A stretch of 64,000 bases of DNA from Candidatus Magasanikiibacteriota bacterium (GCA_903893485.1 CAITMK010000003.1:9922-73921), one strand, 5' to 3'; counted from the first letter of the stretch, positions 10,051 to 64,000 are shown. The notes: generated from the letters alone by a model not told the origin. Numbers and translations are program-made.

Positions 10051-13000
10051 CTAGACCGCTTGCATTTGCAATGTCACATCTTTTGCAAGCGCCGCGCTGC
10101 CTTCTGGAGCATTTATTATGATCGGCTCCGTTGTTAAATTCTGAAAACCTGCTTTTTCTACCATTATGTAATATTGATTTTTACCAACCAAGAATGAATA
10201 CCTACCTTGGTCATCAGTAATCTGTGTTTCCAAAAGTTTATTATATTGTGTATCAAACACGCGAACAATTGCTTGAGCTACTGGTTTGCCATCACTGCCA
10301 CGAACAACACCCCAATCATGCGGCTTTGGTGGAAGTGCGAGGCGGCGGAATACAAAGTAGCTCACCACTTGAGCTGCCAAAAATGCACCCACAAAAATTG
10401 TCGGAGAAACTGCAAATGAGACGGCGGTAAGAACAACGCCGCCTGCGCCAAGTATATTTACTAAACGATTTTTTGCTTTTGTACGCAAAATTTCTCGCGC
10501 AGGTTTTGCATCGCCACCAGGGGCTAATGGTAAGTTGTATGAAATTTGGCCAGCAGCGGCAAGTGGTACGGTGCCACCGGTATATAAATCGGTGAGCGCG
10601 CCATCTTCTGTTTTCCCTTGCATGTACGCAGGTGGAAATGAATAATTTGGTTTTGTTACCTCAAGACGATAATTCCCTGGACGCGCAAAAAACTGATACC
10701 GACCATCTCGATCTGTTACGTGTGATTGCACCACGCGACCTGAATCTGCATTTATAATGCGCACCAACGCTAAGTCTGCAGGCAATTTTGAAATTGCATT
10801 ATAAGCCATGCCCCACCCTTTGCGGCGTTTACGCGTGAGCAAAAATAATGGTTGGGTAAACAAAAAGCGGAAATACAAAGCGATCTGCCCAAAATTTAAC
10901 GCGGTCGAGACGCCTGCCACCACAACTGCAGCTGCAGCCGGAACTACAACCGCTTGGTTGGCGATTTGGACTTGTGGAGCCGCCACAATTTGTGCCGCCG
11001 CAACACGTATTTTACGAACAGATTTAACTACGCTCACTGACGCAGCAGTAACGGTTTCTGAAATTTTTTGAGCAGTAACTGTTTGTGCAACGTTTTCCGG
11101 AATAGTGACGGTGCTGGTGGTGCTCGTGGTGTTTGCGGGTTCCTGTACGACGAGCGGAACAGTTGTTGTCGTTATTATCTCAGTGGATGTTGCCATCGGC
11201 GCAATAACTCCCCCAGCAACTGGAGCAGGCGCTGCAATTGGTACCAAACCTGGTGTATCTTTTTTAACTGGTGGAGGTGGAACCGCTGGTAAATCTACGA
11301 TGATAGTGCGCTGAACACTGTCCAACAAATTGCTCGAAGCGTCTACCATGCGGTATTCAAATGCATAGGTATCGCTCACCGCTGCCAAAGAAATTGGAAC
11401 ACTCCATTTACCATTTGTGTCAACAATGCTCGTGAATGTGGCGCCGCCTTGCACAATCACAATGTGTGACTGTGGTTTACCATGGCCACTTGCCGTAAAA
11501 GAATTTTTGGTAATATGCACGTTGTCTTGCGGTGAATCAACCGAAAGCGGAATCAGTGGTTCTGCAGCCAAAATAGTAAAACTTGCCGTATCAGAACTCA
11601 TATTTCCCGCAATATCCGTTGCCGACGCAACTATCTGATACGATCCCACTGGTAAATCGTCTGGAACGGCATAGCTCCAACCCCCTTGTGGGCTCACTGG
11701 CAATGTCACATGAACTTTTTCTGCCCCACCTGAAGTTACTATCAAAACAAACAGTTCGTGCGGATCTGCAGTGCCAGAAATAGTTATGGTGCCAGTGGTC
11801 AGCTTTTCATTATTTTGTGGATTTGCAATAACAGGAGTTATCGGCGCGGTTGCATCCAAAATCACTTTTGCGACTACTACAGAACTTTCTATGCCTGTTC
11901 CCGAGCGAACCTTTAAATAGATTGATTTTTGGCCGTCGGGCGTTGGCAATGTCCAAACTTTAGTTGGTAACAAAGTCTCCCACACGCCTCCAACAAAATC
12001 TGATGAATTACTAAGCATCATTTGGGAGGCGGTATCGTCGTAACCAATTGCAAGTAATACACTTGTCGACGTTGTATAAGCGGGTGCGCTAATCGTTGGT
12101 GCTGTTACTGGCCGTTGCGGTGTACTTTCGGCAACTAGTGTAATATTTTGCACCGATACCGCGCTTTCGCCACCATCACTACCGCGAACTTTTGCATAAA
12201 TGTGTTTTAAACCAAGCGCTGAGTCCAATATAAATGAGGATGTTTGTGAATATGCCTGCCATACCGTATTTGTAAATGAATTATTTAAAGAAAACACCAT
12301 CTGAGAAGCACCGTTCGCCGCAATACCAAGTGTAACCGTGGTAGACGCGGTCGTAGTTGCGCCACCATTAATACCAAAACTGCTGATGATTGGAGTAACT
12401 ACTTGTGGTGGCCCACCGCCAGTACAAGTAGTGCATGGTGGTGTAATTATCACGGGCGCCGACGAAGACATGTATACCGTAAAAAGCTGGTTTTGAGAAA
12501 TCAAATCAGCGCTCGTGGATGAGGTATACAATCCATTAATTGGTGCAGCAGAAACCACGAATGGACCGCTTGAACCACCGTCGATAAGCAAAAAATCATC
12601 TGGTCGGTATTGCTGTGACATGAAGTAATCGGCGTTGGAAACATACCCGTCTCCATCAGTTACATAATCATGTGATGTAATGCCTCCACCAATATTACTG
12701 TCGTGAATTGTGACCGTAGCACCCGCTACCGGCGCTCCGTACATATCTAAAATTAAGGCTCGCGGTTTATACAACAACATGATAGATCCTGTATTTTTCA
12801 TGTATACCGACCCTCGTGTAATTGTAGGTCCAAACAAAAAATTATAGGTTTGACTTGGTCCTAAACTATCATCAGAGCAAAGATCATATTCCAAACTCGA
12901 GGTGGCAACAAAATTATATAAATTATTTTGCGCATATGCAGCTCCAGAAGCTCCTTCAAACAAAACGCCACAGGTGTTACCCGTTGAAGTGACATTGGTA

Positions 13001-15324: not shown

Positions 15325-15342
15325 ACGCGACAAAGCAATCTT

Positions 15343-32197: not shown

Positions 32198-33883
32198 ATG
32201 CGATTGTTAATCGCGGTAGTTTCCCTCGTCGGCGCCGTGTGGTTGCCGATGGGATGTGGGAGCGATAGCAGTGCTATCACCCCCACCGATGCTGGTTCCG
32301 GAGATACCGGCAGCGACGTGGGCTTGCCCAATGCACCAACGCCGTGCGGTTCGGCCGCGGAGTGTCAGTACGAAGGAATGCAGAAAGAATGCCGCAAGGC
32401 TACCTGCGACCTCACGGCTGGTCACTGCGTGGTGAATCAAGCGGACGACGGCGACCAATGCATGGCCGGCAATGCCTGCTACGACAAAGGGACCTGCACC
32501 GCGGGCCAATGCGTCGTCGGGAAGGCCGTGCTGTGCGATGACGGAATCGCGTGCACCATCGACAGCTGCGACATCACGACCGGTTGCCTGCACAAGCCCC
32601 TCCAAGAGGGCGCGGACTGCGACGACGGCAACGTGTGTACGGTTGGCGATCAATGCACTAAGTTCGGCCTTTGCGCGGGCACCAAGCAAACCTGCGACGA
32701 CGGCGAGATCTGCACCAACGACTCGTGCAACCCGGTCAGCGGCGCGTGCGAAAACACGCCAACCAATGGCCCATGTGACGATGGCAAGGTCTGCACCAAC
32801 GACTCGTGTGTTGGTGGCAAATGCCTCGGCGTCGAAATCAAATGCGACGACGGCAACTTCTGCACCATCGACAAATGCGTCGAAGCCTTTGGCGGCTGTG
32901 TCGGCACCAACTCTTCCGGCGGACCGTGCAATGACGGCGACGGATGCACGGTGGGCGACACGTGCGACAGCGGTATCTGCAAATCGGGTACACCCCAAGT
33001 TTGTAACGACGGCAACGTCTGCACAGCGGAAAAGTGTTCATCGCCGAGCGGCACCTGTGTGTTCACCAAGTCCACCGAGACCCAGTGCAACGACGGTAAT
33101 CTATGCACGGAAAATGACCTGTGCGACACCGTGGCGCCGTGGGTGTGCAAAGGCGGCAAGCCGCTCGTGTGTGACGACGGTAACGTCTGCACCTCCGACA
33201 GCTGCACGGGCAATGGCGGCTGCGCATTTACGCCGAACAACGGCACGTGCGACGACAACAACTCGTGCACGGTGGGCGACACGTGCGTGGCCAAAGAGTG
33301 CCAGCCGAGCAACTTGCAGAAGTGCGACGACAACAACCCGTGCACCACGGACTCGTGTTCGCCAATCACGGGCTGCATCTTCGACGCCAATTCCATCAGC
33401 TGCACGGATGGCAACAGCTGCACGCTGGATGACAAGTGCGCGAACAAATCGTGCGTGGGCGTGGGTGTGGTCTGCAACGACAACAACCCGTGCACCACGG
33501 ACTGGTGTTCGCCGGACCTGGGTTGCCAGGCCGACAAGCTGTCCGTCAACGCAACGTGCAACGATGGCAACGGCTGCACGGGCCCGGACCTGTGCGATGG
33601 CGCTGGCAAATGCAGCGGCAAGACAATTTCGAATTGCGACGACGGCAATTCGTGCACGGACGACTCGTGCAATCCGACCAATGGTTCGTGCGTGAACAAA
33701 GCCAAGCTTGACGGCTCGGCCTGCACGGACAACAACGCGTGCAGCTCCGGCGACGCGTGCAAAGGTGGCATTTGTGCAGCCGTTGCCGTGGACTTGTGCA
33801 ACGACAACGTGACCTGCACCGTGGACATTTGCAATCCGGCCAACGGCGCGTGCTCCCACACGCTCGACCCGAACTGCAAGTAA
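32198..33883 (+). CDS. cysteine-rich tandem-repeat lipoprotein (about 13 ~38-aa CDDGNxCTxDxC...GC repeats)
   Basis: Strong SD (AAAGGAG) 7 nt before the ATG, signal peptide ending ...WLPMGCGS, periodic Cys spacing, about 62% GC. Many alternative-frame ORFs on both strands are artefacts of GC and repeat structure. Confidence 0.8.
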   Translation: MRLLIAVVSLVGAVWLPMGCGSDSSAITPTDAGSGDTGSDVGLPNAPTPCGSAAECQYEGMQKECRKATCDLTAGHCVVNQADDGDQCMAGNACYDKGTCTAGQCVVGKAVLCDDGIACTIDSCDITTGCLHKPLQEGADCDDGNVCTVGDQCTKFGLCAGTKQTCDDGEICTNDSCNPVSGACENTPTNGPCDDGKVCTNDSCVGGKCLGVEIKCDDGNFCTIDKCVEAFGGCVGTNSSGGPCNDGDGCTVGDTCDSGICKSGTPQVCNDGNVCTAEKCSSPSGTCVFTKSTETQCNDGNLCTENDLCDTVAPWVCKGGKPLVCDDGNVCTSDSCTGNGGCAFTPNNGTCDDNNSCTVGDTCVAKECQPSNLQKCDDNNPCTTDSCSPITGCIFDANSISCTDGNSCTLDDKCANKSCVGVGVVCNDNNPCTTDWCSPDLGCQADKLSVNATCNDGNGCTGPDLCDGAGKCSGKTISNCDDGNSCTDDSCNPTNGSCVNKAKLDGSACTDNNACSSGDACKGGICAAVAVDLCNDNVTCTVDICNPANGACSHTLDPNCK

Positions 33884-34025: not shown

Positions 34026-35264
34026 ATGAAGTTCCTTGTTCCGGCTATCTTTGCCCTCCTTTTAGTGGGGGCAACGGGCTGCGGAGATACCGCCGCCCCA
34101 CACGCCGATGACGCGTCAGCTGACGCGAGCGGCGATGCAAACAAAGACGCCACGCTCGGCGATGCCTCGGACTTTGCTCCGGACACGCCAAACGCAAGCG
34201 ACAGCGTCGACATCGCAAATCAAGTCACGCCAGGCGCCAAGAACTGGCCTTGCAGTGTGAACAGTGATTGCGACTCCGGCTACTGCGCGGAATCGCAGAA
34301 CGGCAAGCTGTGCGCGGAGGCGTGCGTTGGAGACTGCTCGTTCGGGTTTGCTTGTCAGACCGTTTCCAATGTCAGCGGCGACATCACGCAGTTCTGCGTC
34401 TCCAAGTTCACGTTCCTGTGCAATCCGTGCGAACACAACACGGAGTGCAACAGCAACTCGAGCTCAAGCAACCGCTGCTTGGACAAAGGCCCTGAAGGAA
34501 TGTTCTGCGGCGTCTCATGCGAAAGCACCAAAGACTGCCCCGCGGGATACGCTTGCAACCAGTTCTCGGATGATACCGGGACGTTCCTGCAGTGCGTACC
34601 CAAGGGTGGCCAAACGTGCGAATGCAATCCGCGCGCCATGGAACTGAAGCCGCAGACCACGTGCTACGAGGCGGCGTCGCCAAGCACGTGCAAAGGCACG
34701 CGTCAGTGTGAAGCCGCGGGCCTTTCGGCCTGCGACATCAAAAAGTCGCCGGAGATCTGCGACGATAAGGACAACGATTGCAACGGTCTGACCGATGAAG
34801 GGCTCTGCGACGATGGCAATCCCTGCACCGCTGACAGCTGCAACTCGGACGGCTCCTGCAAACACGATCAGCTGCAGGGCACGCCCTGTGATGACGGCAG
34901 CGTTTGCACGACCAGCGACAAGTGCGCGGCAGGTTTCTGCGTTTCGGGCGCCACGCTGCTCTGCGACGACAACAATCTGTGCACGGACAACCTGTGTGAC
35001 CCGGTAAATGCTTGCATGTACCCGGCGAACAAAGCTCCGTGCAACGATGGCAATCAGTGCACCTTGGTGGACATGTGCAGCGAAAAAAAGTGCCTGGGAT
35101 CTGTGCCGCCGAATTGCGACGACAAGAATCCGTGTACCACCGACTTCTGCGATCCGACGCTCGGCTGCGTCCATCAGGCTGATACCAAAGTGGACGGTTC
35201 GCCCTGCGCTTCTGCCCCCGGCAGCATCGGCCAGTGCGTGAATGGCAAGTGTGCCCAAACCTAG
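34026..35264 (+). CDS. cysteine-rich lipoprotein with a MopE-like DxDNDCxGxxDEG motif and C-terminal CDDGNxCTxDxC repeats
   Basis: Signal peptide with LVGATGC lipobox; CDDKDNDCNGLTDEG motif; five or more C-terminal Cys repeats like those of 32198..33883; 62% GC. Confidence 0.8.
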   Translation: MKFLVPAIFALLLVGATGCGDTAAPHADDASADASGDANKDATLGDASDFAPDTPNASDSVDIANQVTPGAKNWPCSVNSDCDSGYCAESQNGKLCAEACVGDCSFGFACQTVSNVSGDITQFCVSKFTFLCNPCEHNTECNSNSSSSNRCLDKGPEGMFCGVSCESTKDCPAGYACNQFSDDTGTFLQCVPKGGQTCECNPRAMELKPQTTCYEAASPSTCKGTRQCEAAGLSACDIKKSPEICDDKDNDCNGLTDEGLCDDGNPCTADSCNSDGSCKHDQLQGTPCDDGSVCTTSDKCAAGFCVSGATLLCDDNNLCTDNLCDPVNACMYPANKAPCNDGNQCTLVDMCSEKKCLGSVPPNCDDKNPCTTDFCDPTLGCVHQADTKVDGSPCASAPGSIGQCVNGKCAQT

Positions 35265-47189: not shown

Positions 47190-47567
47190 ATGCCCTTTTC
47201 AGCCGTCTGGCGAGATTATAACATACAACGCGAACGCCGTTACAAAGTTGCCCCCAAATTAATGCATTTGGCGTGGGGTTATTTGGCGGAATACCAAAAA
47301 GAAATGTTACAACTTACCGAAGATTTAGAACGCGCGCACCAGCTCAAAGAATTTGGATTCACCCTGGTGGGCGAGCAATTTGAAGCAGAAAAAAAATTGT
47401 CCAAGGATCTGCGGCAGCTCCTTATTAAATGTCATCATCACCACGCGCTTATTTTAAAAGACGTGTTCCGTGAACATGAGCATGACTTGCTCGATGCCGA
47501 AGCACATTTGCATGTACTTCAAGGACTCGTTATCGGAACAAAGCGCACTGAGTTTTCCCGTTCATAA
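47190..47567 (+). CDS. hypothetical protein
   Basis: 125 aa, ATG start preceded by TTGACG-17-TATACT; His-rich. Confidence 0.5.
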   Translation: MPFSAVWRDYNIQRERRYKVAPKLMHLAWGYLAEYQKEMLQLTEDLERAHQLKEFGFTLVGEQFEAEKKLSKDLRQLLIKCHHHHALILKDVFREHEHDLLDAEAHLHVLQGLVIGTKRTEFSRS

Positions 47568-47596: not shown

Positions 47597-50116
47597 ATGT
47601 CGACTCATCCGTTTGCGCAAAAAACCACCCAGCATTTTAAAAATGTGCTGGTACAATCATTTCATCAAGCGGCACTGACCGGCACCGGATCGGTTACGTC
47701 GCTCCATTTGTTATTTTCACTTTTGGGTGAGGTCGGCTCGATTGGCCAAGAAATTTTGCATCGCGCTGGCGCCACCCGCGAAATGCTTGCGCCTTTTTTT
47801 GGTGAAATCGAAGGCACGCGTTTTGTACACCAGCAAGGACTTTCCCCTGCTGCCACGCGTATTTTGGAACGCGCAATTTTGGTTGCTGCCAAAAATGGTC
47901 ACACATATATCGGCACCGAACATTTACTTGCCGGGCTTTTGGAATCGTCACCTGCCGAATTAAATTTTTTATTTGAAATTTCAAAAGTTAAACGCGCCAC
48001 CGTTGAACAGCAACTCGAAATCGCATTAAAAAGCGCGGGCAAATTACCAGAATTATTGCACGACTTTAAATCAAAACAATCCACTGCCAAACAAAACGCA
48101 AAACAAAAAACGCCGGCGCTTGAATTTTTTGCAACAGAATTGACCACGCAAAAAGTTGCCGCAAAATTAGACCCGGTGATTGGTCGCGATGAAGAAATTG
48201 AACGCTTAATTCATGTGCTCTGCCGTCGCACCAAAAACAATCCGTTGCTTTTGGGCGATCCGGGCGTTGGTAAAACCGCAATTGTCGAAGGCTTGGCAAA
48301 ACGCATTGTTGATGGCGCGGTTCCTGCAGCGCTTGCCGATAAACGTATTTTTTCCGTTGATTTAGGTTTGGTTATTGCTGGCACCATGTATCGCGGTGAA
48401 TTCGAAGGCCGCATCAAACAACTCATCGACGAGGTAAAACAGCATCCTGAAATTATTTTGTTCATCGATGAAGTACATTCTATTGTTGGTGCAGGTTCAT
48501 CGAATGGCACACTCGACGCAGCGAATTTATTAAAACCTGCATTAGCGCGCGGCGAGTTGCACGTAATTGGCGCAACCACGTTTGAAGAATTCAAAAAACA
48601 CATCGAACACGACGCGGCACTTGAACGCCGTTTTCAAACCGTGATGATCAAAGAACCAACTGCCGACGAAACGATTGAAATTTTGAAACATATTAAATCG
48701 CGTTACGAATCGTTTCATCATGTTGCAATTAGCGATGAAGCAATTGTTGCGGCCACCAAACTATCGCACAAATATTTCCCCGAAAAACATTATCCGGATA
48801 AAGCGATTGACTTGATCGACGAAGCCATGAGCGCGCAAAAAGTTGAGCGCACTCATTTGGAAACGCACACGCGCCGCGCAGAACTTCGCAAAAAAATTAT
48901 TCAACTTGGTCGCAAAAAACAAGAAGCGGTTATCGAAGAAAATTTTGATCGCGCCACTGCGCTGCAAGCCGAAGAATCCGCCGCGCAACTTGAACTTTCG
49001 GCGCTCGAAGCCGTCACTGAGTCCGGCGCGCCACTTGGCACGGTTACCGCACGCGATATGTACGCCGTTTTGGCACGCATCACCCGCCGCCCACTGGCCG
49101 AAATGTCGAGTGGTATTAATGCTCGCGGCATTTCTGCACTGCTCACGCAAAAAGTTTTTGGGCAATCAGAAGCGCTTACCAAAATTGCTGCAACACTTGC
49201 AAAAGCAGAATTAGGTTTGGGCAGCGACACGCGCCCACTTGCTTCATTTCTTTTTGTTGGCCCAACCGGCACAGGCAAATCCGAAGTTGCAAAATTAATT
49301 GCCGCTGGCGCCTATGGCGATCCAAAAGCCGTGATCCATCTTTCCATGACGGAATTTTCGGAAGGATTTAGCGTTTCCAAACTTCTCGGCTCGCCCGCTG
49401 GTTACGTTGGCCACAAAGAATCAACCACACTCGTTGATCGACTTCGCCGCCAACCACTTTCCGTAATCGTGTTCGACGAAATCGACAAAGCGCATGGCGA
49501 TGTACTCAATATTTTATTGCAAATGCTCGAAGAAGGCCGACTCACGGATTCATCGGGCAAAGAAGCGAACGTCAAACAGTGCATTATTATTTTGACACAC
49601 CAAATTCCCTACGAAGAAGCCGCGGGATCGCAGTTTGGTTTTGGTGCAAGCACAATTGGTGCAAATCGCGGCCAGGCGCGCACGGCAAAAGAAATCGAAC
49701 AGTCGCTTCGCACCATCATGAAACCAGAACTGTTAAATCGTATCGATTCAATTTGCGTGTTTCAACCGCTTACCGAAGATGCACTCGCACAAATCGCAGG
49801 CGCTGAACTTGCAGATTTAGCAACGCGCGTTTCAAAACGCGGTATTGCGCTTACGTGGGATGATGGAGCGCCCGCAGCAATTGCAAAAACAATTTCAAGT
49901 GCGGCTGATGGCGCCCGCAGCGTTCGACACGCAACGTACACACAAATTGAACAACCGCTCATCGATGCATATTTGGCGCAAGAAGAAATGTCCGCATACC
50001 ATATTGAATCGGAAGATGGTATAATCCGTGGTATTCCAACCTATGGACGAGACCAGCAATTCATCACAACTCTCAAGAAATCCAGGGCTCGAGTACGCAC
50101 AAGCGCAAAGGCTTAA
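47597..50116 (+). CDS. clpC: Clp/Hsp100 AAA+ chaperone, ClpC-like (two Clp-N repeats, two AAA modules, short UVR-containing linker)
   Basis: GDPGVGKTA and GPTGTGKSE Walker A motifs and a sensor-2 region; 839 aa fits ClpC rather than ClpB. Confidence 0.85.
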
Positions 50117-50411
50117 TGAAGCGCGCGCGGCGAATAATCTTCAAGCTGCTTCTGAGAAAAACACTGCTAGCAACGCGAACACCGTCTACGATGAGCCTAG
50201 TGTTGATGAATACCCTGATGATGAGCTCGAGGACGACGCTTCGGATGATAGCAATGAAGAAACAGGAGGCGAACAAACTTCCGACGATTCAGGCCCATCG
50301 AATGCAGACAAGGCCAAGGAGTTGGCAAAAGCTGCGCGCTTTGGCATCTGGGGAGCTGTTCTGTGGTTTTTAAAAAAATTGTGGGGACTCTTCACCGCAC
50401 AAAATTCATAA
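50028..50411 (+). CDS. possible small acidic protein overlapping the clpC 3' end
   Basis: 127-aa ORF with a D/E-rich centre and C-terminal amphipathic/hydrophobic tail. The only in-frame ATGs lie 73-90 nt inside clpC. May be non-coding. Confidence 0.25.
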   Translation: MVFQPMDETSNSSQLSRNPGLEYAQAQRLNEARAANNLQAASEKNTASNANTVYDEPSVDEYPDDELEDDASDDSNEETGGEQTSDDSGPSNADKAKELAKAARFGIWGAVLWFLKKLWGLFTAQNS

Positions 50412-50423
50412 TTGTTCTTTTAT

Positions 50424-51680
50424 ATGGAAACTGAATTCGACAAAAAAAAGGTTCTTGCCCTTGTTGGCATTGTTGCGGCCACCGGGCTCATTGGCTACAT
50501 CATTTACGTAGTTTTTTTTAAATCCGCAGCGCCAGCCGCGGTCACTACTCCAACCGAACAAACCGCTGGCGGAGGTCTTTCACCTTCCGGACAAGCAACC
50601 CCAGGCACCAATGTGGTAACGCCGCAAGCACCAGAGCAACAAGTTTTTTCTTCCGCATCACAAATTAGCCCACTCGCTACTGCTGGGTCAAAAATTGTAA
50701 GCGTCACACCAATTGTCACACTCCCAACCGTTGGCGTAACTGCCGCGGCAAATGGGAATGATTTACAATTTTACAACTCAGTTGATGGGAAATTTTACAA
50801 AATTAATTCTGACGGCACCCCAACCACGTTAACTCCAGATTCATTTCCAAACGTAAAAACCGTTGAATGGTCCCCAAATAAATCGCTCGCCGCAATGAGT
50901 TTTCCAGATGGCAGCAAAATTGTATACGATTTTAAAGCGCAGAAACAATACACGCTTCCAAAACATTGGGACTCAATCACCTTTTCGCCAGACAGTACAC
51001 AACTGTACGGAAAAACCCAAAGTCCAGATCCAGAATTGCGGTTTTTATTTAGTTCAAACGTCGATGGCACGGGCGCAACTCCAATTGAACCACTTGGCAA
51101 TAATGGCGATAAAGTTATCATTGCACCATCACCAAACAATCAGGTCATTGCATTTTCAAATACCGCGGACCCAATTGGGGGCGGCGCCGAACGCATGGGC
51201 ATGCTTCTGATTGGCAAAAATCACGAAAACTTTAAACAAATGACCATTGAAGGTCTTGGTTTTCAACCAAAGTGGTCACCAAACGGTGATAAGGTTTTAT
51301 ACAGCGCATACAATCGCAGTACCGGTTTAGCACCAATTTTATGGGTTGATGGTGGCACTGACAGCACTGTTGGCCAACTCAAAAACGCTTTTCCAATTAA
51401 AACTTGGGCAAGTAAATGTACGTTTGCATCAAACGACGAAGCAATCTGCGCGGTACCAAATCCAGATACGCTTCTTCCTGGCATCGGTTTTGCACCACAA
51501 CTCGCAACCAATACCGACGATACTATTTACAAAATCAATCTTAAAAGCGGTTTACAAACAATCGTTGGAAAACCAGATGGCAACCGCACGATTTCAGAAG
51601 TTACCGCATCAGAAGATGGCCAGTACCTGTACATGAAAGACCAAAATTCGGGAGAGCTGCTGAAAATGCGTCTTAAATAA
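50424..51680 (+). CDS. membrane-anchored WD40-like beta-propeller protein (TolB/PD40-like repeats)
   Basis: ATG at 50424 (METEFDKK); the track form starts at a TTG at 50412. N-terminal TM, Thr/Pro-rich linker, recurring WSPN/FSPD..G...Y repeats. Confidence 0.6.
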   Translation: METEFDKKKVLALVGIVAATGLIGYIIYVVFFKSAAPAAVTTPTEQTAGGGLSPSGQATPGTNVVTPQAPEQQVFSSASQISPLATAGSKIVSVTPIVTLPTVGVTAAANGNDLQFYNSVDGKFYKINSDGTPTTLTPDSFPNVKTVEWSPNKSLAAMSFPDGSKIVYDFKAQKQYTLPKHWDSITFSPDSTQLYGKTQSPDPELRFLFSSNVDGTGATPIEPLGNNGDKVIIAPSPNNQVIAFSNTADPIGGGAERMGMLLIGKNHENFKQMTIEGLGFQPKWSPNGDKVLYSAYNRSTGLAPILWVDGGTDSTVGQLKNAFPIKTWASKCTFASNDEAICAVPNPDTLLPGIGFAPQLATNTDDTIYKINLKSGLQTIVGKPDGNRTISEVTASEDGQYLYMKDQNSGELLKMRLK

Positions 51681-51681
51681 T

Positions 51682-52353
51682 ATGCGAAACGAGACCGCAA
51701 TTGCCGCGGGGCTTATCTGTTGCAGTATCATAATTGGCGGCATTGCCATTATTAAGTTACAAAATTCTGATTCAGCCACGCCTCAGCAATTAACTAAATT
51801 GACCACTCCACCAATACGAATTACTGACCCTACACAAGGGCCAGAAAAGGCGCCGGTCACAATTGTGGTGTATGCTGATTTTGCATGCGATAGCTGCGGC
51901 GGGCTTGCCACCGAACTTTCGAATCTACGCCATGAATCAGAAATTGGCAATAAGTTTCGGGTGATCTGGAAAGATTTTCCGATACACCAACAAACACTTC
52001 CAAAAAGTTTTGATCTACATATTGCAGCTCGATGCGCTGCAACCATGGGTAAATTTTGGGAATTTCATGACGCGGTATTTGCCCATGCAAATCAACTTAT
52101 TTTTGGAACCGATATTTTATCCGCGGTGGAACAAGAATCTGGCGTTTCTCCATCGCGCATTGCCGATTGCATGAAGTCATCCGCAATTACGGATTTAATT
52201 AATCAAAATATGGCTGATGGGCGAGCGCTTGGCATCACCGCACTCCCCACCTATTTTATCAATGGCAACCGCAACGAAGGTGTCCTCCCTTACAATCAAC
52301 TTCGTGGTATAATTCGGAGCGAAATCGCAACATATGATGCATCGCATCCGTAA
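51682..52353 (+). CDS. DsbA-family thiol:disulfide oxidoreductase (membrane-anchored)
   Basis: N-terminal TM and a thioredoxin fold with a CDSC CxxC; 1 nt after the upstream gene. Confidence 0.65.
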   Translation: MRNETAIAAGLICCSIIIGGIAIIKLQNSDSATPQQLTKLTTPPIRITDPTQGPEKAPVTIVVYADFACDSCGGLATELSNLRHESEIGNKFRVIWKDFPIHQQTLPKSFDLHIAARCAATMGKFWEFHDAVFAHANQLIFGTDILSAVEQESGVSPSRIADCMKSSAITDLINQNMADGRALGITALPTYFINGNRNEGVLPYNQLRGIIRSEIATYDASHP

Positions 52354-54676
52354 TTTTTTCATTGCAAGTTTTTTTGTAATCAGCACTTTTTTAGTGCCGG
52401 CTTCGGCGCACGCACTTGATAATTTTTTAGACTGCACCAACCTAACAAATAATTGCAACAACCGCAGCGGCTGCGTTCAAAATCATATTGGCACGAATCC
52501 TGATACGGGATATAGCACGGTCGTCAATAATGTTTTAACCAGTATGTGTATCCCCTACTACACATACGATCTTTGTGGTACCGATAGTTATTCGAAAGCT
52601 CATATTACGATGGGGACTGTTGATTCTGGAAATTGTCAACAAAAAGGCGAATATTGCGCACTCGTAAGTTCTACAAAATACAAGGATCATTTTGCTGCTT
52701 TTTGTGTAAATGATCAGATGATTCCAAAAGCACTAAATTCAAACAACATTTGTACAACATCAGCAAATTGTAATGTTAACCAGCAATGTGTTTTTGTATC
52801 AACGGTTAATCTCAGTACTGGCATTATTAACGGTAAGGACTCAAGTTTCTCATTCCAGAATGATTTGAACCCACTATTTACCGCTACTCGTTGCATGGAT
52901 ACCAATCTTTTGCCACCAGAACTTGTTGACCCAAAACTTGGTGGCACTTGTGGCACAAACTCAAGCTGCACTGATTCACAAATTTGTGTTCAAAATACAT
53001 TCGATCCAGAACACTATCCGCAAGTTTGTGTTGATAAAACAGCTGCCGCCATTACCACGAACTGCGACAAAGCTCACGTTGCAAGTCAATGCAACACCGG
53101 GACACAAACAAATCATGTTTGCATGCAAATTGTATCGGATCTAAAAAATCCATATCAATGTGTCGATGTAACCACGCTCCCCGGCGGCCCTACGGCACCA
53201 ACCGTAAAGGTCTGCGATACTGATGCTGATTGCAAAGGTATTGGATCTTCCGCAGATGGCACCGCAGGATATTGTTTATATAATCCCGCTACGAAAAAAA
53301 ATCAGTGCATGCCAAATTCGGTTGTGTACACCGATGCTGCGGCAACAGCCAGCTGTAAAATTCCAGGCACCAGCGGTTGTGAGGCTGGCGATCCAACTTC
53401 GATTTGCACCTATCGACCATCCGCAACATTGGCTTTCATGTGCATTAAAGGTAATTCGCTGGGAAGTGGCGCGGGCATGGCTGCATATGTTCCTCCACCA
53501 CAACTAGCTACTGCGCAAGATACTAACACCCGCCCCGCACCCGTACTCGAAATTAACATTCCTGATCTTTCGTTTACCGATAAGCTCGTTGGTCACGCCG
53601 CGCCCGGTGGACAAATTTTCGATGTGAATTATCTGGCAACATATATTAATGCCGTGTACAAATACGGTATCGGACTTTGTGTTTTAGTTGCCACGATCAT
53701 GCTCATGTATTCTGGTTTTCTATACATGACCGCTGGTGGAAATTCAAAGGCCGCAACCGAAGCAACTACTGGCGCCAAAAATGCAGTCGCAGGACTTATC
53801 ATTCTTTTTTGTGCGTACATTTTCTTATACACAATCAATCCCAACTTAACGCAGCTAAAATCAATTAGTATTTTTGCGCAACAAACGGATCCTTACGAGT
53901 TAAAGGACGATGGTGAATCCACACCAACCCTCACCGAAGGCCAAACAAATAGTATTACCACGCAAACAGGTCCCTTTACCCCAATCGATTCTAAAAGTCC
54001 GTTGATCGAACAGCTCATCGGCGCGCTACCCGATAGTATCGAGGCGTGCTCGCCTGCTGCGGCAGATTATGCCGCGACTAAATTAACTGCATTGGGCATT
54101 TGTGTCCGCGACAAAAACTGTGCAAATACCGCATCAGCGTTCATGAACTATATAAAATGCACAAAAGTTTTTGAAGGAAGTGCGCGTTATCTTCCTGCCG
54201 TGCTTAGTAAATCTGGATGGACAACAATATTGATTCAAAAAGGTCAAGAACAAAACTTACCGCTTGGTGTTCTTTGGATGAATGATGGTCACGTTGGAGT
54301 TTCGCTTGGCAATGGAAAAGGACAATTCGATTCCGGTAATGGGCAACATGCACTCAATGAAATAAATAAAATAACCGGTGGTAACTGTGCGAAATTGAAT
54401 CACAAAGTCGCCAACGTTGACGATTGTAATTCGTGCGCAAAAATCCAAGCAAAAAAACCAATCGCCGACGTGGATGTGCAATCGTGGTACAAAAATCCAA
54501 CCGTTACCCCTATTACCGAAAAATATTCATGGAAGCTCATCATGGTCCCTCCAAAATACGCTCAATCAACCGTGCCGCGTGGTCCTTGCAGCGTAGCGGG
54601 AATCAACATTAAAGATGGGGTTGAGTCCACACTCTGCAATGCGCTTACCAATACGTGGCCCCCAGCAAAATCTTAA
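52334..54676 (+). CDS. Cys-rich secreted protein with a conserved two-helix membrane hairpin and a C-terminal NlpC/P60- or CHAP-like papain-fold peptidoglycan hydrolase domain
   Basis: Signal peptide ...ASAHA; about 40 Cys in the ectodomain; hydrophobic pair IGLCVLVATIMLMYSGFLYM / AVAGLIILFCAYIFLY; C-terminal ...NC(x55)...LPLGVLWMNDGHVGVSLGNG (Cys...His about 55 aa apart). Confidence 0.7.
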   Translation: MMHRIRNFFIASFFVISTFLVPASAHALDNFLDCTNLTNNCNNRSGCVQNHIGTNPDTGYSTVVNNVLTSMCIPYYTYDLCGTDSYSKAHITMGTVDSGNCQQKGEYCALVSSTKYKDHFAAFCVNDQMIPKALNSNNICTTSANCNVNQQCVFVSTVNLSTGIINGKDSSFSFQNDLNPLFTATRCMDTNLLPPELVDPKLGGTCGTNSSCTDSQICVQNTFDPEHYPQVCVDKTAAAITTNCDKAHVASQCNTGTQTNHVCMQIVSDLKNPYQCVDVTTLPGGPTAPTVKVCDTDADCKGIGSSADGTAGYCLYNPATKKNQCMPNSVVYTDAAATASCKIPGTSGCEAGDPTSICTYRPSATLAFMCIKGNSLGSGAGMAAYVPPPQLATAQDTNTRPAPVLEINIPDLSFTDKLVGHAAPGGQIFDVNYLATYINAVYKYGIGLCVLVATIMLMYSGFLYMTAGGNSKAATEATTGAKNAVAGLIILFCAYIFLYTINPNLTQLKSISIFAQQTDPYELKDDGESTPTLTEGQTNSITTQTGPFTPIDSKSPLIEQLIGALPDSIEACSPAAADYAATKLTALGICVRDKNCANTASAFMNYIKCTKVFEGSARYLPAVLSKSGWTTILIQKGQEQNLPLGVLWMNDGHVGVSLGNGKGQFDSGNGQHALNEINKITGGNCAKLNHKVANVDDCNSCAKIQAKKPIADVDVQSWYKNPTVTPITEKYSWKLIMVPPKYAQSTVPRGPCSVAGINIKDGVESTLCNALTNTWPPAKS

Positions 54677-54678
54677 CT

Positions 54679-56850
54679 ATGAGATTTCGCTTTCGTCTTT
54701 ATCTCATTTCAAGTTTATTATTTTTGAGTGCCTTTGCCGCGCCATCTTCTGCGCATGCACTCGGCAATGATGTTCTTCAAAATTGCGCATCCGTAACCGG
54801 CTGTGATTCGAATTTAACCTGCGTCCAGAAAAATAATGTAAGCGGATTTAATATTCAACCGCTGGATAATATTTGCATGCCGGAGCCGGCTTACGCCAAT
54901 TGCGGTCTAAAAAATGAGGGCCTACAAATTAAAGGTAAATGCGAACTTGGGAGTTTTGAATGTGCCGTAATCAGCTCCCTCAAACGCACAAACGCGTACG
55001 TTGATTCATGTGTTTCAAAATCAAAATTGCCTCAGATGGGCGTTTTAGATCAAACCGATTGCTCTGATTCCACTGACTGTAATGTTGGAGAGCAGTGCGT
55101 TCTGGTTTCCCTGCCAAATGATACCGGGACCAATACCACGTTTGGCACCCACCGCTGTATTTCGATTTTAGATTTACCAACAAAAATTGTGGATGATGCC
55201 GGATCGTGTTTTGCAAAAAAGAAATGCGATCCCGGTCTTGTTTGTGTACGCCACATCGATGACAAGACCGTTGATAATCCGTTTGTCTGCCAAAAAAATA
55301 CCGACGTTAAGCCCGCGCCAACTTGCATCGATAAAACGACCATTGGCACAGATTGTGTTATTGATGGCACTCCAGGCACTTGCTTGGATATTTTTATTGG
55401 CACGTCAAAACCAGTTGTGCAATGTGTTCGTAAAGATACGCTTATCGGCGGCGTCAATGCGCCAAGTTCACAAGTTTGCACCAACGATAACGATTGCAGC
55501 TCCGTAACCGGATTTCCTTATTGCGTCACCAACCCAGCTACGGGGAAAAATCAATGTTTTGGCCAGGATCAAATTTATACTGCAATGACTAATCCTGCTG
55601 ATGCAAAATGTACTACCGGTTCTCCAAGCGCCTCGTGTGCATGTACCGCAAATAAAATAACTGGCTGCGCGGGTAATGCTGGCGGATCTGTCTGTTCAAC
55701 ACATTTGGGCGGCTCTGGTGGATTTATTTGTATCCATAATCAAGCGCTCAGTGCGGGTACAACAACCGTTGGATACACCCCTGCAGCCACGCCCCAAGAC
55801 AGTAATACTCGCCCCGCGCCAGTACTTGAAGTCGCAATTCCAACGGTAAATTTTTCAGATGCGCTTACCGGGACATCAACCACCGGTGGTCAAATTTTTA
55901 ATGTAGATTATTTAGCGACCTACATAAATGGTGCATATAAATATGGCATCGGTGTAGGAGTACTTTTTGCAACACTTTTGCTCATGTACGCGGGCTTTTC
56001 TTACATGACCGCTTTTGGAAATGCAAAACAAGTTAGCACCGCAACCGATAATGCAAGAAATGCAATCATGGGGCTTGCACTATTATTTTCTGCATACACG
56101 ATTCTATATATAATCGATCCAAATATAACGCAGCTCAAATCAATACAAATTTTCTCACCATCAACCGAAGTATTTGATATTGGTACTGCAAATTTTGTCG
56201 ATGAAAATTCTACACCACAATCAACTCCGCCATCAGTATCTTCGAGCCCAAGTGCATTTGATGATATTTTTAAAAAATATGCACAATGTTCCGGTATCAA
56301 CTGGGAACTTATGAAGGCAATTGCGAAACATGAATCTGGCCTCAACCCAAATATTCCAAATGGAAGCGGAAGCAGCTGTATCGGACTTTTTCAAGCGAAA
56401 GCTGGAAAAGATAATGCATTCTGCAAAGCAGTTTTAAAACCCGTACACCTCGATGTTAAATGCGATGTACCTGGCCTTACTGATCCAGATCTTAATACCG
56501 CATTTGCAACAGAAATTTTTAAAGTATCAGTTCCCGCTATAAATAAAAGGTGTCCGGATGCGACATTCGGTGATAAAGTTTTTTTGTTATATTTTGCAAA
56601 TGGTAACGGGCCAAGTGGCATGAACACTGCAATTACAGCCTACCACTGTAATCCCGTGAGCAACCCATCAACATGGCCTGATCCAGATACCCGGTGGCCT
56701 GCTGGAACAGCTCACGGACTCGGTGGCGTAAAAGTTTATCATGGTGCAACAAAAGCCTACAATTATGATATTGTTAATGTGATTTCTGCTCTAGGCGTAA
56801 CACAATTCAGCGGTCCAATGAATGCATCTGTCTGCCCAACGCACCACTAG
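54679..56850 (+). CDS. Cys-rich secreted protein, paralog of 52334..54676, with the same membrane hairpin and a C-terminal SLT lytic transglycosylase domain
   Basis: ATG at 54679 gives signal peptide MRFRFRLYLISSLLFLSAFAAPSSAHA; the track form starts at a GTG at 54655. SLT motif AIAKHESGLNP...GSSCIGLFQ; the hairpin region is about 75% identical to the paralog. Confidence 0.75.
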   Translation: MRFRFRLYLISSLLFLSAFAAPSSAHALGNDVLQNCASVTGCDSNLTCVQKNNVSGFNIQPLDNICMPEPAYANCGLKNEGLQIKGKCELGSFECAVISSLKRTNAYVDSCVSKSKLPQMGVLDQTDCSDSTDCNVGEQCVLVSLPNDTGTNTTFGTHRCISILDLPTKIVDDAGSCFAKKKCDPGLVCVRHIDDKTVDNPFVCQKNTDVKPAPTCIDKTTIGTDCVIDGTPGTCLDIFIGTSKPVVQCVRKDTLIGGVNAPSSQVCTNDNDCSSVTGFPYCVTNPATGKNQCFGQDQIYTAMTNPADAKCTTGSPSASCACTANKITGCAGNAGGSVCSTHLGGSGGFICIHNQALSAGTTTVGYTPAATPQDSNTRPAPVLEVAIPTVNFSDALTGTSTTGGQIFNVDYLATYINGAYKYGIGVGVLFATLLLMYAGFSYMTAFGNAKQVSTATDNARNAIMGLALLFSAYTILYIIDPNITQLKSIQIFSPSTEVFDIGTANFVDENSTPQSTPPSVSSSPSAFDDIFKKYAQCSGINWELMKAIAKHESGLNPNIPNGSGSSCIGLFQAKAGKDNAFCKAVLKPVHLDVKCDVPGLTDPDLNTAFATEIFKVSVPAINKRCPDATFGDKVFLLYFANGNGPSGMNTAITAYHCNPVSNPSTWPDPDTRWPAGTAHGLGGVKVYHGATKAYNYDIVNVISALGVTQFSGPMNASVCPTHH

Positions 56851-61696: not shown

Positions 61697-62215
61697 CTAA
61701 AACTTCAAGACCTTCTCCAAAACATCGCCCAAAGGCTCTTCTACTTGGGTTTTGTCTTCCCGGACGAACCGCAAAAGCGTCTCGCGGACCTCATTCGGGT
61801 CTTCGTCTTCCAGCGGAATAGAAAGCCGTGGCGACGTGGCACTTTTGAACGTGATATATAAACTTTTGACCACACCTGGTTCAAAAACAATGAAAAAACG
61901 GTCGACTTCGAGGTATGGGTACAAAAATCCGCGCCACACCACGCCTTTGTCGGTAATGCCAAACTGCGTCAGGCCCGGCTCTTTGGTCTCGTGGAACAAA
62001 AAAATGACCGCGATTAAAATTAAAATAAACGCAAATAAATAATTATCGGTGTAGAGCGCGTACCCAATCGTTGCAAGTAAAAAAATGCTGGCCGTAATGT
62101 ACCACCGGGGTGTGTGCGGATATTTGGTATATTCCGGGATATCCCACACGTGATAAATCGTGTTTCCAAATTGATTGACAAGGGGCTCTGGCATATGATG
62201 ACAAAAGTATAACAT
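61697..62215 (-). CDS. hypothetical membrane protein
   Basis: ATG at 62215 (MLYFCHHMPEP...) gives 172 aa with two TMs. The track's longer form runs antisense through tRNA-Ser and was trimmed. Confidence 0.55.
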   Translation of the reverse strand: MLYFCHHMPEPLVNQFGNTIYHVWDIPEYTKYPHTPRWYITASIFLLATIGYALYTDNYLFAFILILIAVIFLFHETKEPGLTQFGITDKGVVWRGFLYPYLEVDRFFIVFEPGVVKSLYITFKSATSPRLSIPLEDEDPNEVRETLLRFVREDKTQVEEPLGDVLEKVLKF

Positions 62216-62268
62216 GTATTGACTCGAGGCGCCAAATCCGCTACAATTGAATCGTTCTAAATTTACGT

Positions 62269-62360
62269 GGAGAGGTGGCCGAGTTGGTCGAAGGCACCAC
62301 ACTGCTAACGTGGCAGGGCTTAAACCGCCCTCCAGGGTTCGAATCCCTGCCTCTCCGCCA
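62269..62360 (+). tRNA. tRNA-Ser (anticodon GCU), class II with long variable arm, CCA encoded
   Basis: Acceptor GGAGAGG/CCTCTCC, 3-bp D stem, anticodon loop CTGCTAA, variable arm GGGC-TTAAACC-GCCC, T arm CAGGG-TTCGAAT-CCCTG, discriminator G. Confidence 0.85.
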
Positions 62361-62400
62361 GGACATCCCACTCACGTGGGATTTTTTGTTTGACGCCTTT

Positions 62401-63060
62401 TTAAACAGCCGCCACAACGACGCCGCAAATTTTTTCGACACCAACATGGTGAAGAGCTTCAATCGCAGCAGTCATTGTACTTCCTGTGGTGAGCACATCA
62501 TCGACAATGCAATATTGTACAGCAGGATCGATTTTTTCTGTTGCAATAAACGCACCCTGCATGGCACCCAAACGTTCCTGACGTGATCGATGTGCTTGCT
62601 GCCCGCGTCCACGGGCGCGCACCAAAATATTTTTAATTTCAAAATTTTCTGCACCGCCGGCCCGCAATATTCCCTGCGCCAAAATTTCCGATTGATTAAA
62701 TCCGCGCAGCGCTAACCGCTTTTCTAAGAGTGGAATCGGTACTAATATTATTTTTTCTTTTTGCGGCGGTAAACAATCATGCATCCATTGCCCCATCACC
62801 TCACCGGCGCGCCAAATCATTTTATATTTAAGCGTGTGAATTGCGCTGCGCACCGATGCAACTTCAAAACTGGTGGCCGAAAAAACCTGCGCACCAGCAA
62901 TTTCTCGAGTACAAATTCCGGCATTCAGACGCATAATCTCGCATTTTGTACACCAGATTACACAACCAGAATCAGAGCTGTCCACAAACAGCCCACAACC
63001 CATGCACGGCATGGGAAATAAAAAATCTAATACCACCCGCCAAATCCCCCCTTCCACCAT
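62401..63060 (-). CDS. comFC: ComF-family competence protein (phosphoribosyltransferase domain)
   Basis: N-terminal CxxC...CxxC zinc finger (CMGC...CTKC); C-terminal PRTase motif IVDDVLTTGSTM. Confidence 0.8.
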   Translation of the reverse strand: MVEGGIWRVVLDFLFPMPCMGCGLFVDSSDSGCVIWCTKCEIMRLNAGICTREIAGAQVFSATSFEVASVRSAIHTLKYKMIWRAGEVMGQWMHDCLPPQKEKIILVPIPLLEKRLALRGFNQSEILAQGILRAGGAENFEIKNILVRARGRGQQAHRSRQERLGAMQGAFIATEKIDPAVQYCIVDDVLTTGSTMTAAIEALHHVGVEKICGVVVAAV

Positions 63061-63063
63061 ATG

Positions 63064-63654
63064 TTATGGTTTGTACTCTTTCCAAGTTACGGCGTCAACT
63101 AACCAAATCGAATTTACCTTTACGGCTGCAACGGTCGCGATTTCATAGGTGGTATGATCGCCCGCGGTGCCGCCATGATACAAACGCTGCGCGCCAACTT
63201 CCAAAGTTGCGGTGGTTGCGGTTTGTGCCGTAATTTTTATTGAGATTGCATGTGTGGTAACGCCACTAAATACCGCAGCAACGGTTGGCGCCTGTGTTAA
63301 ACGAGCCTGCGCCCATGCTAACAAATGGGGGCCCATGCGACTGAGTAATTGTTTCAAATTCGCATTTTCTGCATCCGTTGAATAGGTTCCAAAGCGCGCA
63401 ACAAAATCACCGGTGGTGCGCTGAAGCATTGCGTCTGATGAATCCTTTGGGATTGAGCCTGCTGGAATTGGTGTGGCTGGTGTAACTGGTCCAATGTTTG
63501 GCGTTGTTGTTGCAGTTTGTGTTGGCGCAACTGGCGATGGAGCCGCAGGTGCAGCTGCGCGATTTTTAAGTGCAATAATCGCCGCAATAATTAGCAGCAC
63601 CGCTGCCAAAATCATGACGCCCATTCTTAATTTTTTCTGTGTTTCTGCTTCCAT
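63064..63654 (-). CDS. hypothetical membrane-anchored protein (N-terminal TM, Pro/Ala/Thr linker, ~120-aa C-terminal domain)
   Basis: 196 aa, ATG start; sits between the VirB4-like fragment and comFC. Confidence 0.55.
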   Translation of the reverse strand: MEAETQKKLRMGVMILAAVLLIIAAIIALKNRAAAPAAPSPVAPTQTATTTPNIGPVTPATPIPAGSIPKDSSDAMLQRTTGDFVARFGTYSTDAENANLKQLLSRMGPHLLAWAQARLTQAPTVAAVFSGVTTHAISIKITAQTATTATLEVGAQRLYHGGTAGDHTTYEIATVAAVKVNSIWLVDAVTWKEYKP

Positions 63655-63659
63655 AGTTT

Positions 63660-64000
63660 TTATGTTTCAGGACCAAACTCAACCGGCACCACTGTTTTAA
63701 GCGCAGCCTCAGCATCGGTTGATTGCGATACGCCCGCCGCAGCCGCTGCGTCTTGATCTTCGCGCAATTTACGTTTTTCCTCTTCCATTTTAATCATCTG
63801 CTGTGGATTGGTAGTAACAATTTGATCTTCGTTATATGACGCAACAATTTTAATTGCCGCGTGTTTGTTGCCCGCAAAGAAAATACCTTCACCAACCGCG
63901 CTTTCCAAAAGCAAAAACTTTTCGCCCTCGGTGAGCATAAAGGTTTTTACCAAGTGATCGATCGCCGCCGGCGACTGTTTAAGCAAAAGCTGCATTGATG
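63660..64000 (-). CDS. C-terminal ~113 aa of a protein continuing beyond the window; resembles the C-terminus of VirB4/TrbE-type conjugative ATPases
   Basis: ...FMLTEGEKFLLLESAVGEGIFFAGNKHAAIKIVASYNEDQIVTTNPQQM... followed by an acidic/Ala-rich tail. No in-frame stop before the window edge. The family call rests on recollection of the VirB4 C-terminal pattern, not a search. Confidence 0.4.
   Translation of the reverse strand, partial: SMQLLLKQSPAAIDHLVKTFMLTEGEKFLLLESAVGEGIFFAGNKHAAIKIVASYNEDQIVTTNPQQMIKMEEEKRKLREDQDAAAAAGVSQSTDAEAALKTVVPVEFGPET

Follow-up and report, generated by a model that had tools for sequence, protein, structure and literature searches.

PrgK (pCF10), TraG (pIP501) and CwlT (ICEBs1) are membrane-tethered proteins associated with type IV secretion systems (T4SSs), in which a glycosidase domain (SLT/muramidase) is combined with a papain-fold domain (CHAP/NlpC-P60) (PMC12102498 and established knowledge). 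Among T4SSs, only that of the patescibacteria, which is devoid of relaxases (PMC12102498; PMC12857230), has been demonstrated to be indispensable if the bacterium bearing it is to grow (PMC10633639); arrays of VirB2-like pilins are among its recognised peculiarities (PMC12102498; PMC12857230). In the saccharibacterium Southlakia epibionticum ML1, the T4SS cluster SEML1_0006-0019 (Wang et al. 2023) comprises VirB4, PrgI and small pilins of family PF18895 (104-185 aa), together with separate large proteins, encoded next to VirB4, that contain lysozyme-like, NlpC/P60-like and M15 DD-peptidase-like domains; the pilin and hydrolase genes of this cluster are all essential for epibiotic growth (PMC10633639). 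In this work we analysed a 64,000-nucleotide stretch of DNA (hereafter the window) from a Candidatus Magasanikiibacteriota bacterium (GCA_903893485.1, CAITMK010000003.1:9922-73921), and in particular a module of four genes at positions 50424-56850. Two of these genes encode large proteins, named here fusion 1 and fusion 2, in which a VirB2-like hairpin stands between a Cys-rich ectodomain and a credible peptidoglycan hydrolase domain; the other two encode a DsbA-like oxidoreductase and a probable PD40-like propeller. The finding consists of known parts (a VirB2-like pilin, VirB1-type wall hydrolases and an MdbA-like oxidase) arranged in an undescribed architecture with a polymorphic enzymatic end. 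With modest confidence, we read the fusions as pilin-hairpin-anchored, polymorphic wall hydrolases that are linked to the patescibacterial T4SS and open peptidoglycan.

As in S. epibionticum, PF18895 pilin domains are here paired with putative wall hydrolases in what is probably the context of a patescibacterial, monoderm-type T4SS. In that organism, however, pilins and hydrolases are separate proteins, whereas in the window hairpin, hydrolase and a 370-aa Cys-rich ectodomain are joined in one polypeptide; moreover, the hydrolases of S. epibionticum adjoin VirB4, while the window genes lie several kb from it, beside the genes of the DsbA-like and PD40-like proteins. PrgK, TraG and CwlT resemble the fusions in their association with a T4SS, which is probable for the fusions, and in the combination of glycosidase and papain-fold activities, putative in the fusions, for opening the wall, but they carry both activities in one protein behind a single N-terminal transmembrane (TM) segment, with a fixed composition and with neither a VirB2-like hairpin nor a Cys-rich ectodomain. 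In the window, each of the two putative activities has instead a paralogous carrier of its own, and genomes differ in the pair that they encode. In the literature we found no description of pilin-hydrolase fusions, of their Cys-rich ectodomain or of their linkage to a DsbA and a PD40-like gene. The author of an earlier note on this DNA knew of no description matching the arrangement; this holds only in part, as the VirB2-like pilin arrays and the neighbourhood of ABY1-class T4SSs with comF, recG and radA had already been published (PMC12102498).

Two paralogous carriers with a pilin hairpin and different C-termini

The four open reading frames (ORFs) of the module are co-directional on the + strand and tightly spaced, and gene calls made separately on an identical public metagenome contig gave products of 418, 223, 779 and 723 aa. 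The stop of the propeller gene (51680) and the ATG of dsbA (51682) are separated by a 1-nucleotide (nt) gap; fusion 1, when started at 52334, overlaps the end of dsbA (52353) by 20 nt, which become 17 nt with the start at 52337 called on the public contig; the stop of fusion 1 (54676) precedes the ATG of fusion 2 (54679) by a 2-nt gap. ORF and gene calls thus agree with the spacing reported in the earlier note. Fusions 1 and 2 share 37% identity over about 540 aa (BLASTP, E 1e-90). The match ends just past the hairpin, and the C-termini are mutually unrelated, so that the proposed paralogy of two large proteins differing at their C-termini was confirmed.

Each fusion starts with a signal peptide ending in AHA, followed by L (aa 1-27 in fusion 1). 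Fusion 1 contains 39 Cys residues in total and fusion 2 contains 37, of which 28 and 30, respectively, are found in the N-terminal ectodomain, arranged as seven 4-Cys modules (aa 28-400 in fusion 1) with a spacing of roughly C-x5-6-C-x5-C-x12-35-C. The membrane hairpin that follows, already recognised in both paralogs, proved to be a T4SS_pilin domain (PF18895, VirB2-like), an identity that had been overlooked: it scored 34.0 bits in fusion 1 and 27.9 bits in fusion 2, against a curated cut-off of 26.6 bits. PF18895 was also above cut-off in 40 of the 46 syntenic homologs encoded next to the propeller gene, two of which are matched by TrbC as well.

In fusion 1, hydropathy and AlphaFold2 modelling place the helices of the hairpin at about aa 433-465 and 471-501. 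The model shows two long helices (model residues 406-438 and 444-474) connected by a five-residue loop, with a predicted local distance difference test score (pLDDT) of about 90. The fusions have therefore the layout of VirB2/TrbC-type pilins (PF04956, PF18895), in which a signal peptide is followed by two hydrophobic helices with a short loop. The size is different: the known pilins, which polymerise, measure about 70-130 aa when mature, whereas the fusions measure 780 and 731 aa and carry N-terminal (about 370 aa) and C-terminal (200-260 aa) extracellular domains, which make polymerisation sterically doubtful. Apart from the two fusions, neither hairpin proteins nor additional small pilins were found in the 64-kb window. 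Outside the helices, the AlphaFold2 model of the N-terminal ectodomain plus hairpin was poor (pLDDT 64.8; predicted template modelling score, pTM, 0.30), owing to an ectodomain coverage of no more than three or four sequences, and a Foldseek search with this model retrieved generic helical hairpins only.

The hairpin is flanked by two conserved motifs, each predicted to form a short beta strand: P-x-L-x-I-x-I-P-x-L-x-F before it (53534-53629 and 55816-55900) and L-K-S-I-x-I-F after it (53840-53881 and 56120-56163). The two strands are predicted to pair outside the membrane. With two membrane passes, the Cys-rich N-terminal domain and the C-terminal domain would both face outward. This topology, which follows by logic from the signal peptides, the two hydrophobic helices and the even numbers of Cys outside them, fits both the disulfide content and the presumed substrate.

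The C-terminus of fusion 2 matched SLT (PF01464) with 31.2 bits against a cut-off of 21.3. Glu560 belongs to the sequence AIAKHES, the counterpart of which in E. coli Slt70 is the motif AIARQES (alignment to residues 450-507 of 1sly/1qsa), with the established catalytic residue Glu478; GLFQ of fusion 2 aligns with GLMQ of Slt70. Profile match, Glu of the E-S motif and GLxQ, the marks of SLT family 1, are thus all present, in agreement with the lytic transglycosylase previously proposed at this position.

The C-terminal domain of fusion 1 gave no match in Pfam, NCBIfam, PDB sequences (phmmer and a 26-sequence profile) or a word-indexed search of 5.8 billion proteins; in particular, it did not match the PF00877 and PF05257 profiles. 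An exhaustive phmmer search over 1.84 billion cluster representatives retrieved 38 relatives, and in 30 of them PF18895 lies upstream of the domain. In this family the Cys of the motif C-A-x-T-A-S-x-F is invariant, and so is the His of G-H-V-G-V-S-L-G, 57 residues away (Cys596 and His653, invariant in 38 and 26 homologs, are the candidate catalytic residues). A confident AlphaFold model (pLDDT 87.9, pTM 0.88), for which 26 members of the family were used, has a papain-like alpha+beta fold. In this model Cys596 (model residue 51) occupies the N-terminus of helix 51-61 and His653 (model residue 108) the start of strand 109-113, a geometry like that of papain-like enzymes; D/E/Q666 and the invariant Ser667 are candidates for the third polar residue, and the domain holds eight further Cys. 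The predicted structure points to a divergent, previously unannotated family of papain-fold hydrolases outside PF00877 and PF05257. The NlpC/P60-or-CHAP-type domain anticipated by the earlier note is supported by the predicted fold and the two invariant residues, with no profile match. Both C-termini can credibly be taken as peptidoglycan hydrolase domains, the SLT from its sequence and the papain-like NlpC/P60-CHAP domain from structure prediction.

A census of the 46 hairpin proteins adjoining the propeller gene revealed a variety of enzymatic ends: Peptidase_M15_4 (6 proteins), Peptidase_C39_2 (5), SLT (4), Amidase_2, M23, NLPC_P60 and VanY (2 each), and phage lysozyme, glucosaminidase, 3D and GDSL esterase (1 each). 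The window carries an NlpC-like domain and an SLT, whereas the corresponding pairs are Amidase_2 and VanY in locus L002, an unassigned domain and C39_2 in L003, SLT and C39_2 in L004, and Amidase_2 and an NlpC-like domain in L013; C39_2 alone is found in L010, and M15_4 in L012. Carriers P0008 and L013a, 92% identical over 507 aa, end in unrelated domains (NlpC-like and Amidase_2, respectively), and so do carriers L002a and L011a, which are 81% identical. Conversely, the SLT of the window is 56% identical to that of L004 fusion 1, while their carriers are only 33% identical. These alignments show an exchange of cassettes at a junction located just after the hairpin, past the L-K-S-I-x-I-F motif. 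Because the pairs vary at orthologous positions and ends are swapped on near-identical carriers, the SLT/papain-fold pairing of the window is incidental.

In locus L016 (11282-13525), a hairpin fusion ends in a GDSL/SGNH esterase and has no peptidoglycan peptidase or glycosidase. A lipase or a peptidoglycan de-O-acetylase are possible functions of this end, and either would add to the chemistry available among the enzymatic ends.

The oxidoreductase and the PD40-like protein

The 223-aa protein matched Thioredoxin_4 (82.3 bits, E 6e-23) and DSBA (50.5 bits, E 3e-13), both above the Pfam cut-offs; it has an N-terminal TM segment and a CxxC motif, CDSC, at aa 69-72. These features identify it as the membrane-anchored, DsbA-like CxxC oxidoreductase named in the earlier note. 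It resembles Actinomyces oris MdbA and Bacillus subtilis BdbD, two membrane-bound DsbA-like oxidases of monoderms, and the MdbA-like family of Candidate Phyla Radiation (CPR) bacteria in the TM-anchored thioredoxin fold, the CxxC motif and the proposed oxidation of secreted pilus or surface proteins; unlike MdbA and BdbD, it is encoded directly upstream of its presumed substrates, with 37-39 Cys. No VKOR/DsbB partner was found within the window. In 18 of 24 loci the DsbA gene stands between the propeller and the fusion genes. The description of this enzyme as dedicated to the fusions is conjectural, considering that other Cys-rich secreted proteins are encoded in the genome and that the MdbA-like family, described as CPR-enriched and proposed to fold pilins, is CPR-wide (10.1101/335083).

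Two ORFs of the + strand, 32198-33883 and 34026-35264, are GC-rich (0.55-0.58, the background being 0.45). Their products contain Cys-rich repeats of the Dicty_CTDC type (E 1e-42 and 2e-11, respectively) and are disulfide-rich, secreted and possibly derived from acquired DNA. Given the presence of these secreted proteins, the DsbA need not serve the pilin fusions alone.

In the 418-aa protein, an N-terminal TM segment spans about aa 10-32, and SP[DN] motifs recur at aa 150, 188, 200, 236 and 285. Its matches to PD40 (E 0.03) and TolB (E 9e-4) were both under the curated cut-offs. When a 66-sequence profile of the family was compared with the blades of E. coli TolB (residues 204-346), hhalign gave a probability of 86% over 136 columns, whereas searches of PDB sequences with profiles of 5 and 66 sequences returned nothing significant (TolB, E 0.7). 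The protein is, judging from these comparisons, a probable PD40-like propeller. The N-terminal anchor claimed by the earlier note was found, while the evidence for a PD40/TolB-like propeller is suggestive only. An orthologous relationship with TolB was rejected (TIGR02800, 18.3 bits against a cut-off of 343), as only the 136 columns align to the blades, and no tol or pal genes were found within the window. The protein shares probable PD40-type repeats with TolB of the Tol-Pal system but comes from a monoderm without Pal/TolA context, and it has its TM anchor where TolB has the N-domain.

Metagenome contigs yielded at least 467 relatives of the propeller. Of 42 loci, 24 have a fusion gene within three genes downstream of the propeller gene. 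The latter is the divergent neighbour of a type IV pilus operon in 27 of 48 loci and follows clpC in 15 of 48; the idea that the propeller is a fusion-specific partner is thus not tenable. The protein may serve envelope machines in general.

In one locus of this kind (L085, 4078-9899; L041, L049, L058, L073, L081 and L087 are similar), the propeller gene is adjacent to pilM, pilN/O-like, pilB, pilC and pilin genes, followed by comF and not by DsbA or fusion genes. In locus L082 (11156-15819), four tandem hairpin fusions of 331-480 aa, with 16-20 Cys each, follow the propeller gene without a DsbA gene. This array resembles the small-pilin arrays of Saccharibacteria, but in fused form.

Proposed linkage to type IV secretion and competing readings

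Synteny of the module, in the order propeller-(DsbA)-fusion(s)-radA-recG, extends to dozens of loci from the CPR. In the window, a VirB4 gene starts 6.8 kb downstream of the module, at the window edge, and the fragment present is 72% identical over 112 aa to a 670-aa protein of L003 that contains P-loop_TraG and AAA_10. The remaining genes of the T4SS cluster would lie past the window edge. The order propeller-(DsbA)-fusions-radA-recG-...-VirB4 is also found in L003 and L045. In L008, PrgI, VirB4, two small genes, the propeller gene and two fusion genes are contiguous on one strand. The neighbourhood of the module corresponds to the arrangement published for ABY1-class T4SS loci, which include comF, recG and radA (PMC12102498). 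The link to secretion suggested by the earlier note is supported by the VirB2-like hairpin, by VirB4 downstream of the module and by the position of the L008 module directly after PrgI-VirB4.

On this basis, the module would be part of the T4SS/competence neighbourhood of an ABY1-class patescibacterium, an uncultured and ultrasmall CPR member that related loci show to be Magasanikbacteria-like. Each fusion would be exported by Sec, after which its VirB2-like hairpin would keep it in the membrane or, possibly, in an assembly resembling a pilus, with the chain of seven 4-Cys modules on the N-terminal flank and the putative hydrolase on the C-terminal flank both exposed outside. The adjacent DsbA/MdbA-like enzyme most likely forms the approximately 18 disulfides of each fusion, while the PD40-like protein would act as a conserved envelope partner. 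The surface hydrolases would then cut the wall, performing the breaching job that VirB1, PrgK, TraG and CwlT perform for conjugation machines. As the enzymatic end is swapped between near-identical carriers, its substrate presumably varies between lineages, and a lineage-variable substrate would be better explained by the wall of a host or partner at the contact site than by the own wall alone.

Several observations weigh against this reading. VirB4 lies on the opposite strand at a distance of 6.8 kb, with housekeeping genes between it and the fusions; it was present in only 4 of the 8 loci that reach at least 7 kb beyond the fusions and was not found in L004, L006, L063 and L066. Where no fusion is present, the propeller gene, and in some loci the DsbA gene too, can still adjoin comF and genes for type IV pili, so that part of the synteny may reflect conserved core-genome order. 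With 730-780 aa and bulky domains at both termini, the fusions are unlike any known polymerising VirB2 pilin. The papain-fold assignment of fusion 1 is based on predicted structure: the Foldseek comparison with the PDB was weak (top match the CHAP endolysin PlyPy, E 0.1), and hhalign of the family with E. coli MepS gave a probability of 8.6%, with only the catalytic-His motif aligned. Finally, the gaps, of just 1-39 nt, leave no room for an immunity-like gene, which argues against a toxin-like role.

Some of these points suit housekeeping autolysins, in which the hairpin would merely be an anchor and the enzymes, with no role in a T4SS, would remodel the cell's own wall for growth, division or the passage of type IV pili or of the DNA-uptake machinery. 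Housekeeping genes (clpC, radA and recG) are indeed the neighbours, the propeller gene is often found beside type IV pilus genes and comF, the four loci just named have no VirB4 near the fusions, and the lack of an immunity gene is in keeping with this function. We consider it nevertheless rather unlikely: the hairpin is homologous to VirB2-type pilins, which occur near virB4 in 1135 of 1948 assemblies (PMC12102498), the L008 module directly follows PrgI-VirB4, and enzymes acting on the own wall would be expected to be conserved, yet those of the fusions are swapped between carriers with 81-92% identity.

A stronger form of the T4SS connection, in which the fusions themselves help to build a VirB2-type filament or conduit (as a membrane-proximal collar, or as subunits that are minor or at the tip) and arm a conjugation-type pilus with enzymes on its pilin scaffold, appears unlikely to us, because subunits of such size with bulky ends do not resemble the known polymerising pilins. 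If it were true, the surface of the host would be reached by stalk modules that disulfides stabilise, an interchangeable hydrolase matched to the peptidoglycan chemotype of the host would drill an entry for the exchange of nutrients, DNA or effectors, and the swapping of the enzymatic end would track host range.

In polymorphic toxin systems (contact-dependent inhibition, CDI; Rhs; the Tae/Tse amidases of the type VI secretion system) a conserved carrier is likewise joined to a variable C-terminal domain by recombinational cassette exchange, and the fusions might by analogy deliver or release a wall-degrading domain against competitors, independently of any T4SS. We judge this to be quite improbable. 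In contrast to those systems, the fusions have no known delivery domain, their carrier is a pilin-like membrane hairpin, and no orphan C-terminal cassettes occur nearby. A cognate immunity gene is likewise missing: gaps of 2 and 39 nt are all that separates the fusions from what comes downstream, namely the second fusion or radA. Moreover, their position in the core genome is fixed, and tblastn searches with hairpin plus SLT against plasmid records and with hairpin plus NlpC-like domain against phage records gave no match; a recent plasmid or phage origin was rejected at that sensitivity.

Least probable of all, and in our opinion hardly credible, is the view of the earlier note that the two genes represent a PrgK/TraG-class SLT+CHAP set split in two, the fixed tool of a Gram-positive-type T4SS: the window does carry an SLT and a papain-fold Cys/His domain in tandem genes, and CPR T4SSs are MPF-FATA-like (PMC12102498), but in the syntenic loci listed above (L002, L003, L004, L010, L012 and L013) the pair is a different one or just one fusion is present, unrelated enzymes are found on near-identical carriers, the relation between the two proteins is that of paralogous carriers and not of halves of one ancestral protein, and with the putative activities on separate proteins there is no PrgK/TraG-like architecture.

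Neighbourhood of the module and significance

The features of the module and of the genes extending to the window edge are collected in Table 1. The housekeeping genes around the module encode phosphomannomutase, RseP and ClpC upstream, and RadA, an EamA transporter and RecG downstream. Scans for promoters and terminators did not exceed the shuffled expectation, and operon boundaries could not be called.

Table 1. Position and supporting evidence of the module genes, of their main domains and of the T4SS-side genes in the window
Feature	Coordinates	Strand	Evidence
Membrane-anchored PD40/TolB-like repeat protein (probable propeller), 418 aa	50424..51680	+	ORF, gene call, sub-cut-off PD40/TolB matches, hhalign
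Membrane-anchored DsbA/MdbA-like thiol:disulfide oxidoreductase, 223 aa	51682..52353	+	Thioredoxin_4, DSBA, CDSC
Pilin-hairpin fusion 1, 780 aa (779 aa from 52337): signal peptide, 4-Cys modules, hairpin, linker, predicted NlpC/P60-CHAP-like domain	52334..54676	+	
Fusion 1 conserved collar and VirB2-like two-helix hairpin, aa 401-516	53534..53881	+	PF18895, AlphaFold2, hydrophobic segments
Fusion 1 orphan domain of predicted papain fold (NlpC/P60-CHAP-like), aa 561-780	54014..54673	+	Predicted structure
Pilin-hairpin fusion 2, 731 aa (start GTG 54655) or 723 aa (start ATG 54679): signal peptide, 4-Cys modules, hairpin, SLT	54655..56850	+	
Fusion 2 hairpin	55816-56163	+	
Fusion 2 SLT lytic transglycosylase domain, aa 536-731	56260..56847	+	PF01464, Slt70 alignment
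Conserved 224-aa protein accompanying recG in many CPR loci	61697-62371	-	
ComF-like phosphoribosyltransferase	62401-63060	-	
196-aa protein trailing VirB4 in related loci	63064..63654	-	Homologous to the gene directly after VirB4 in L003 and L008
VirB4-type T4SS ATPase, C-terminal end (gene continues past the window)	63660..64000	-	72% identity to the L003 protein

The gap between clpC and the propeller gene is occupied by a 127-aa ORF (50028-50411, +) encoding an acidic product with a C-terminal hydrophobic segment. It was rejected as a member of the module, since it was not called on the public contig and no homolog was detected at that position in relatives; L002, L003 and L011 have ORFs of similar size in the same gap, with no detectable similarity to it. 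Upstream of clpC, a His-rich 125-aa ORF (47190-47567, +) has a counterpart in L002 with 50% identity and no significant family match. Farther away, two tandem paralogous genes (4788-9992 and 10051-15333, -) encode giant surface proteins (1734 and 1760 aa) in which the domains CarboxypepD_reg, Big_13 and SdrD_B are present; these proteins are candidate adhesins.

The predicted papain-fold domain of fusion 1 defines a hitherto unannotated family of putative hydrolases, for which 38 cluster representatives were found and which is almost always fused to a pilin. The fusion of pilin and hydrolase in another CPR class than that of S. epibionticum provides a "Rosetta-stone" argument that the two act together and in the same place, and the role of the essential patescibacterial T4SS becomes in this way more directly testable. 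The rapid exchange of the enzymatic end offers a handle for this purpose, namely whether the type of enzyme predicts the wall chemistry of the host. If the enzymes attack host walls, they would be candidate determinants of host range for a quarter of bacterial diversity.

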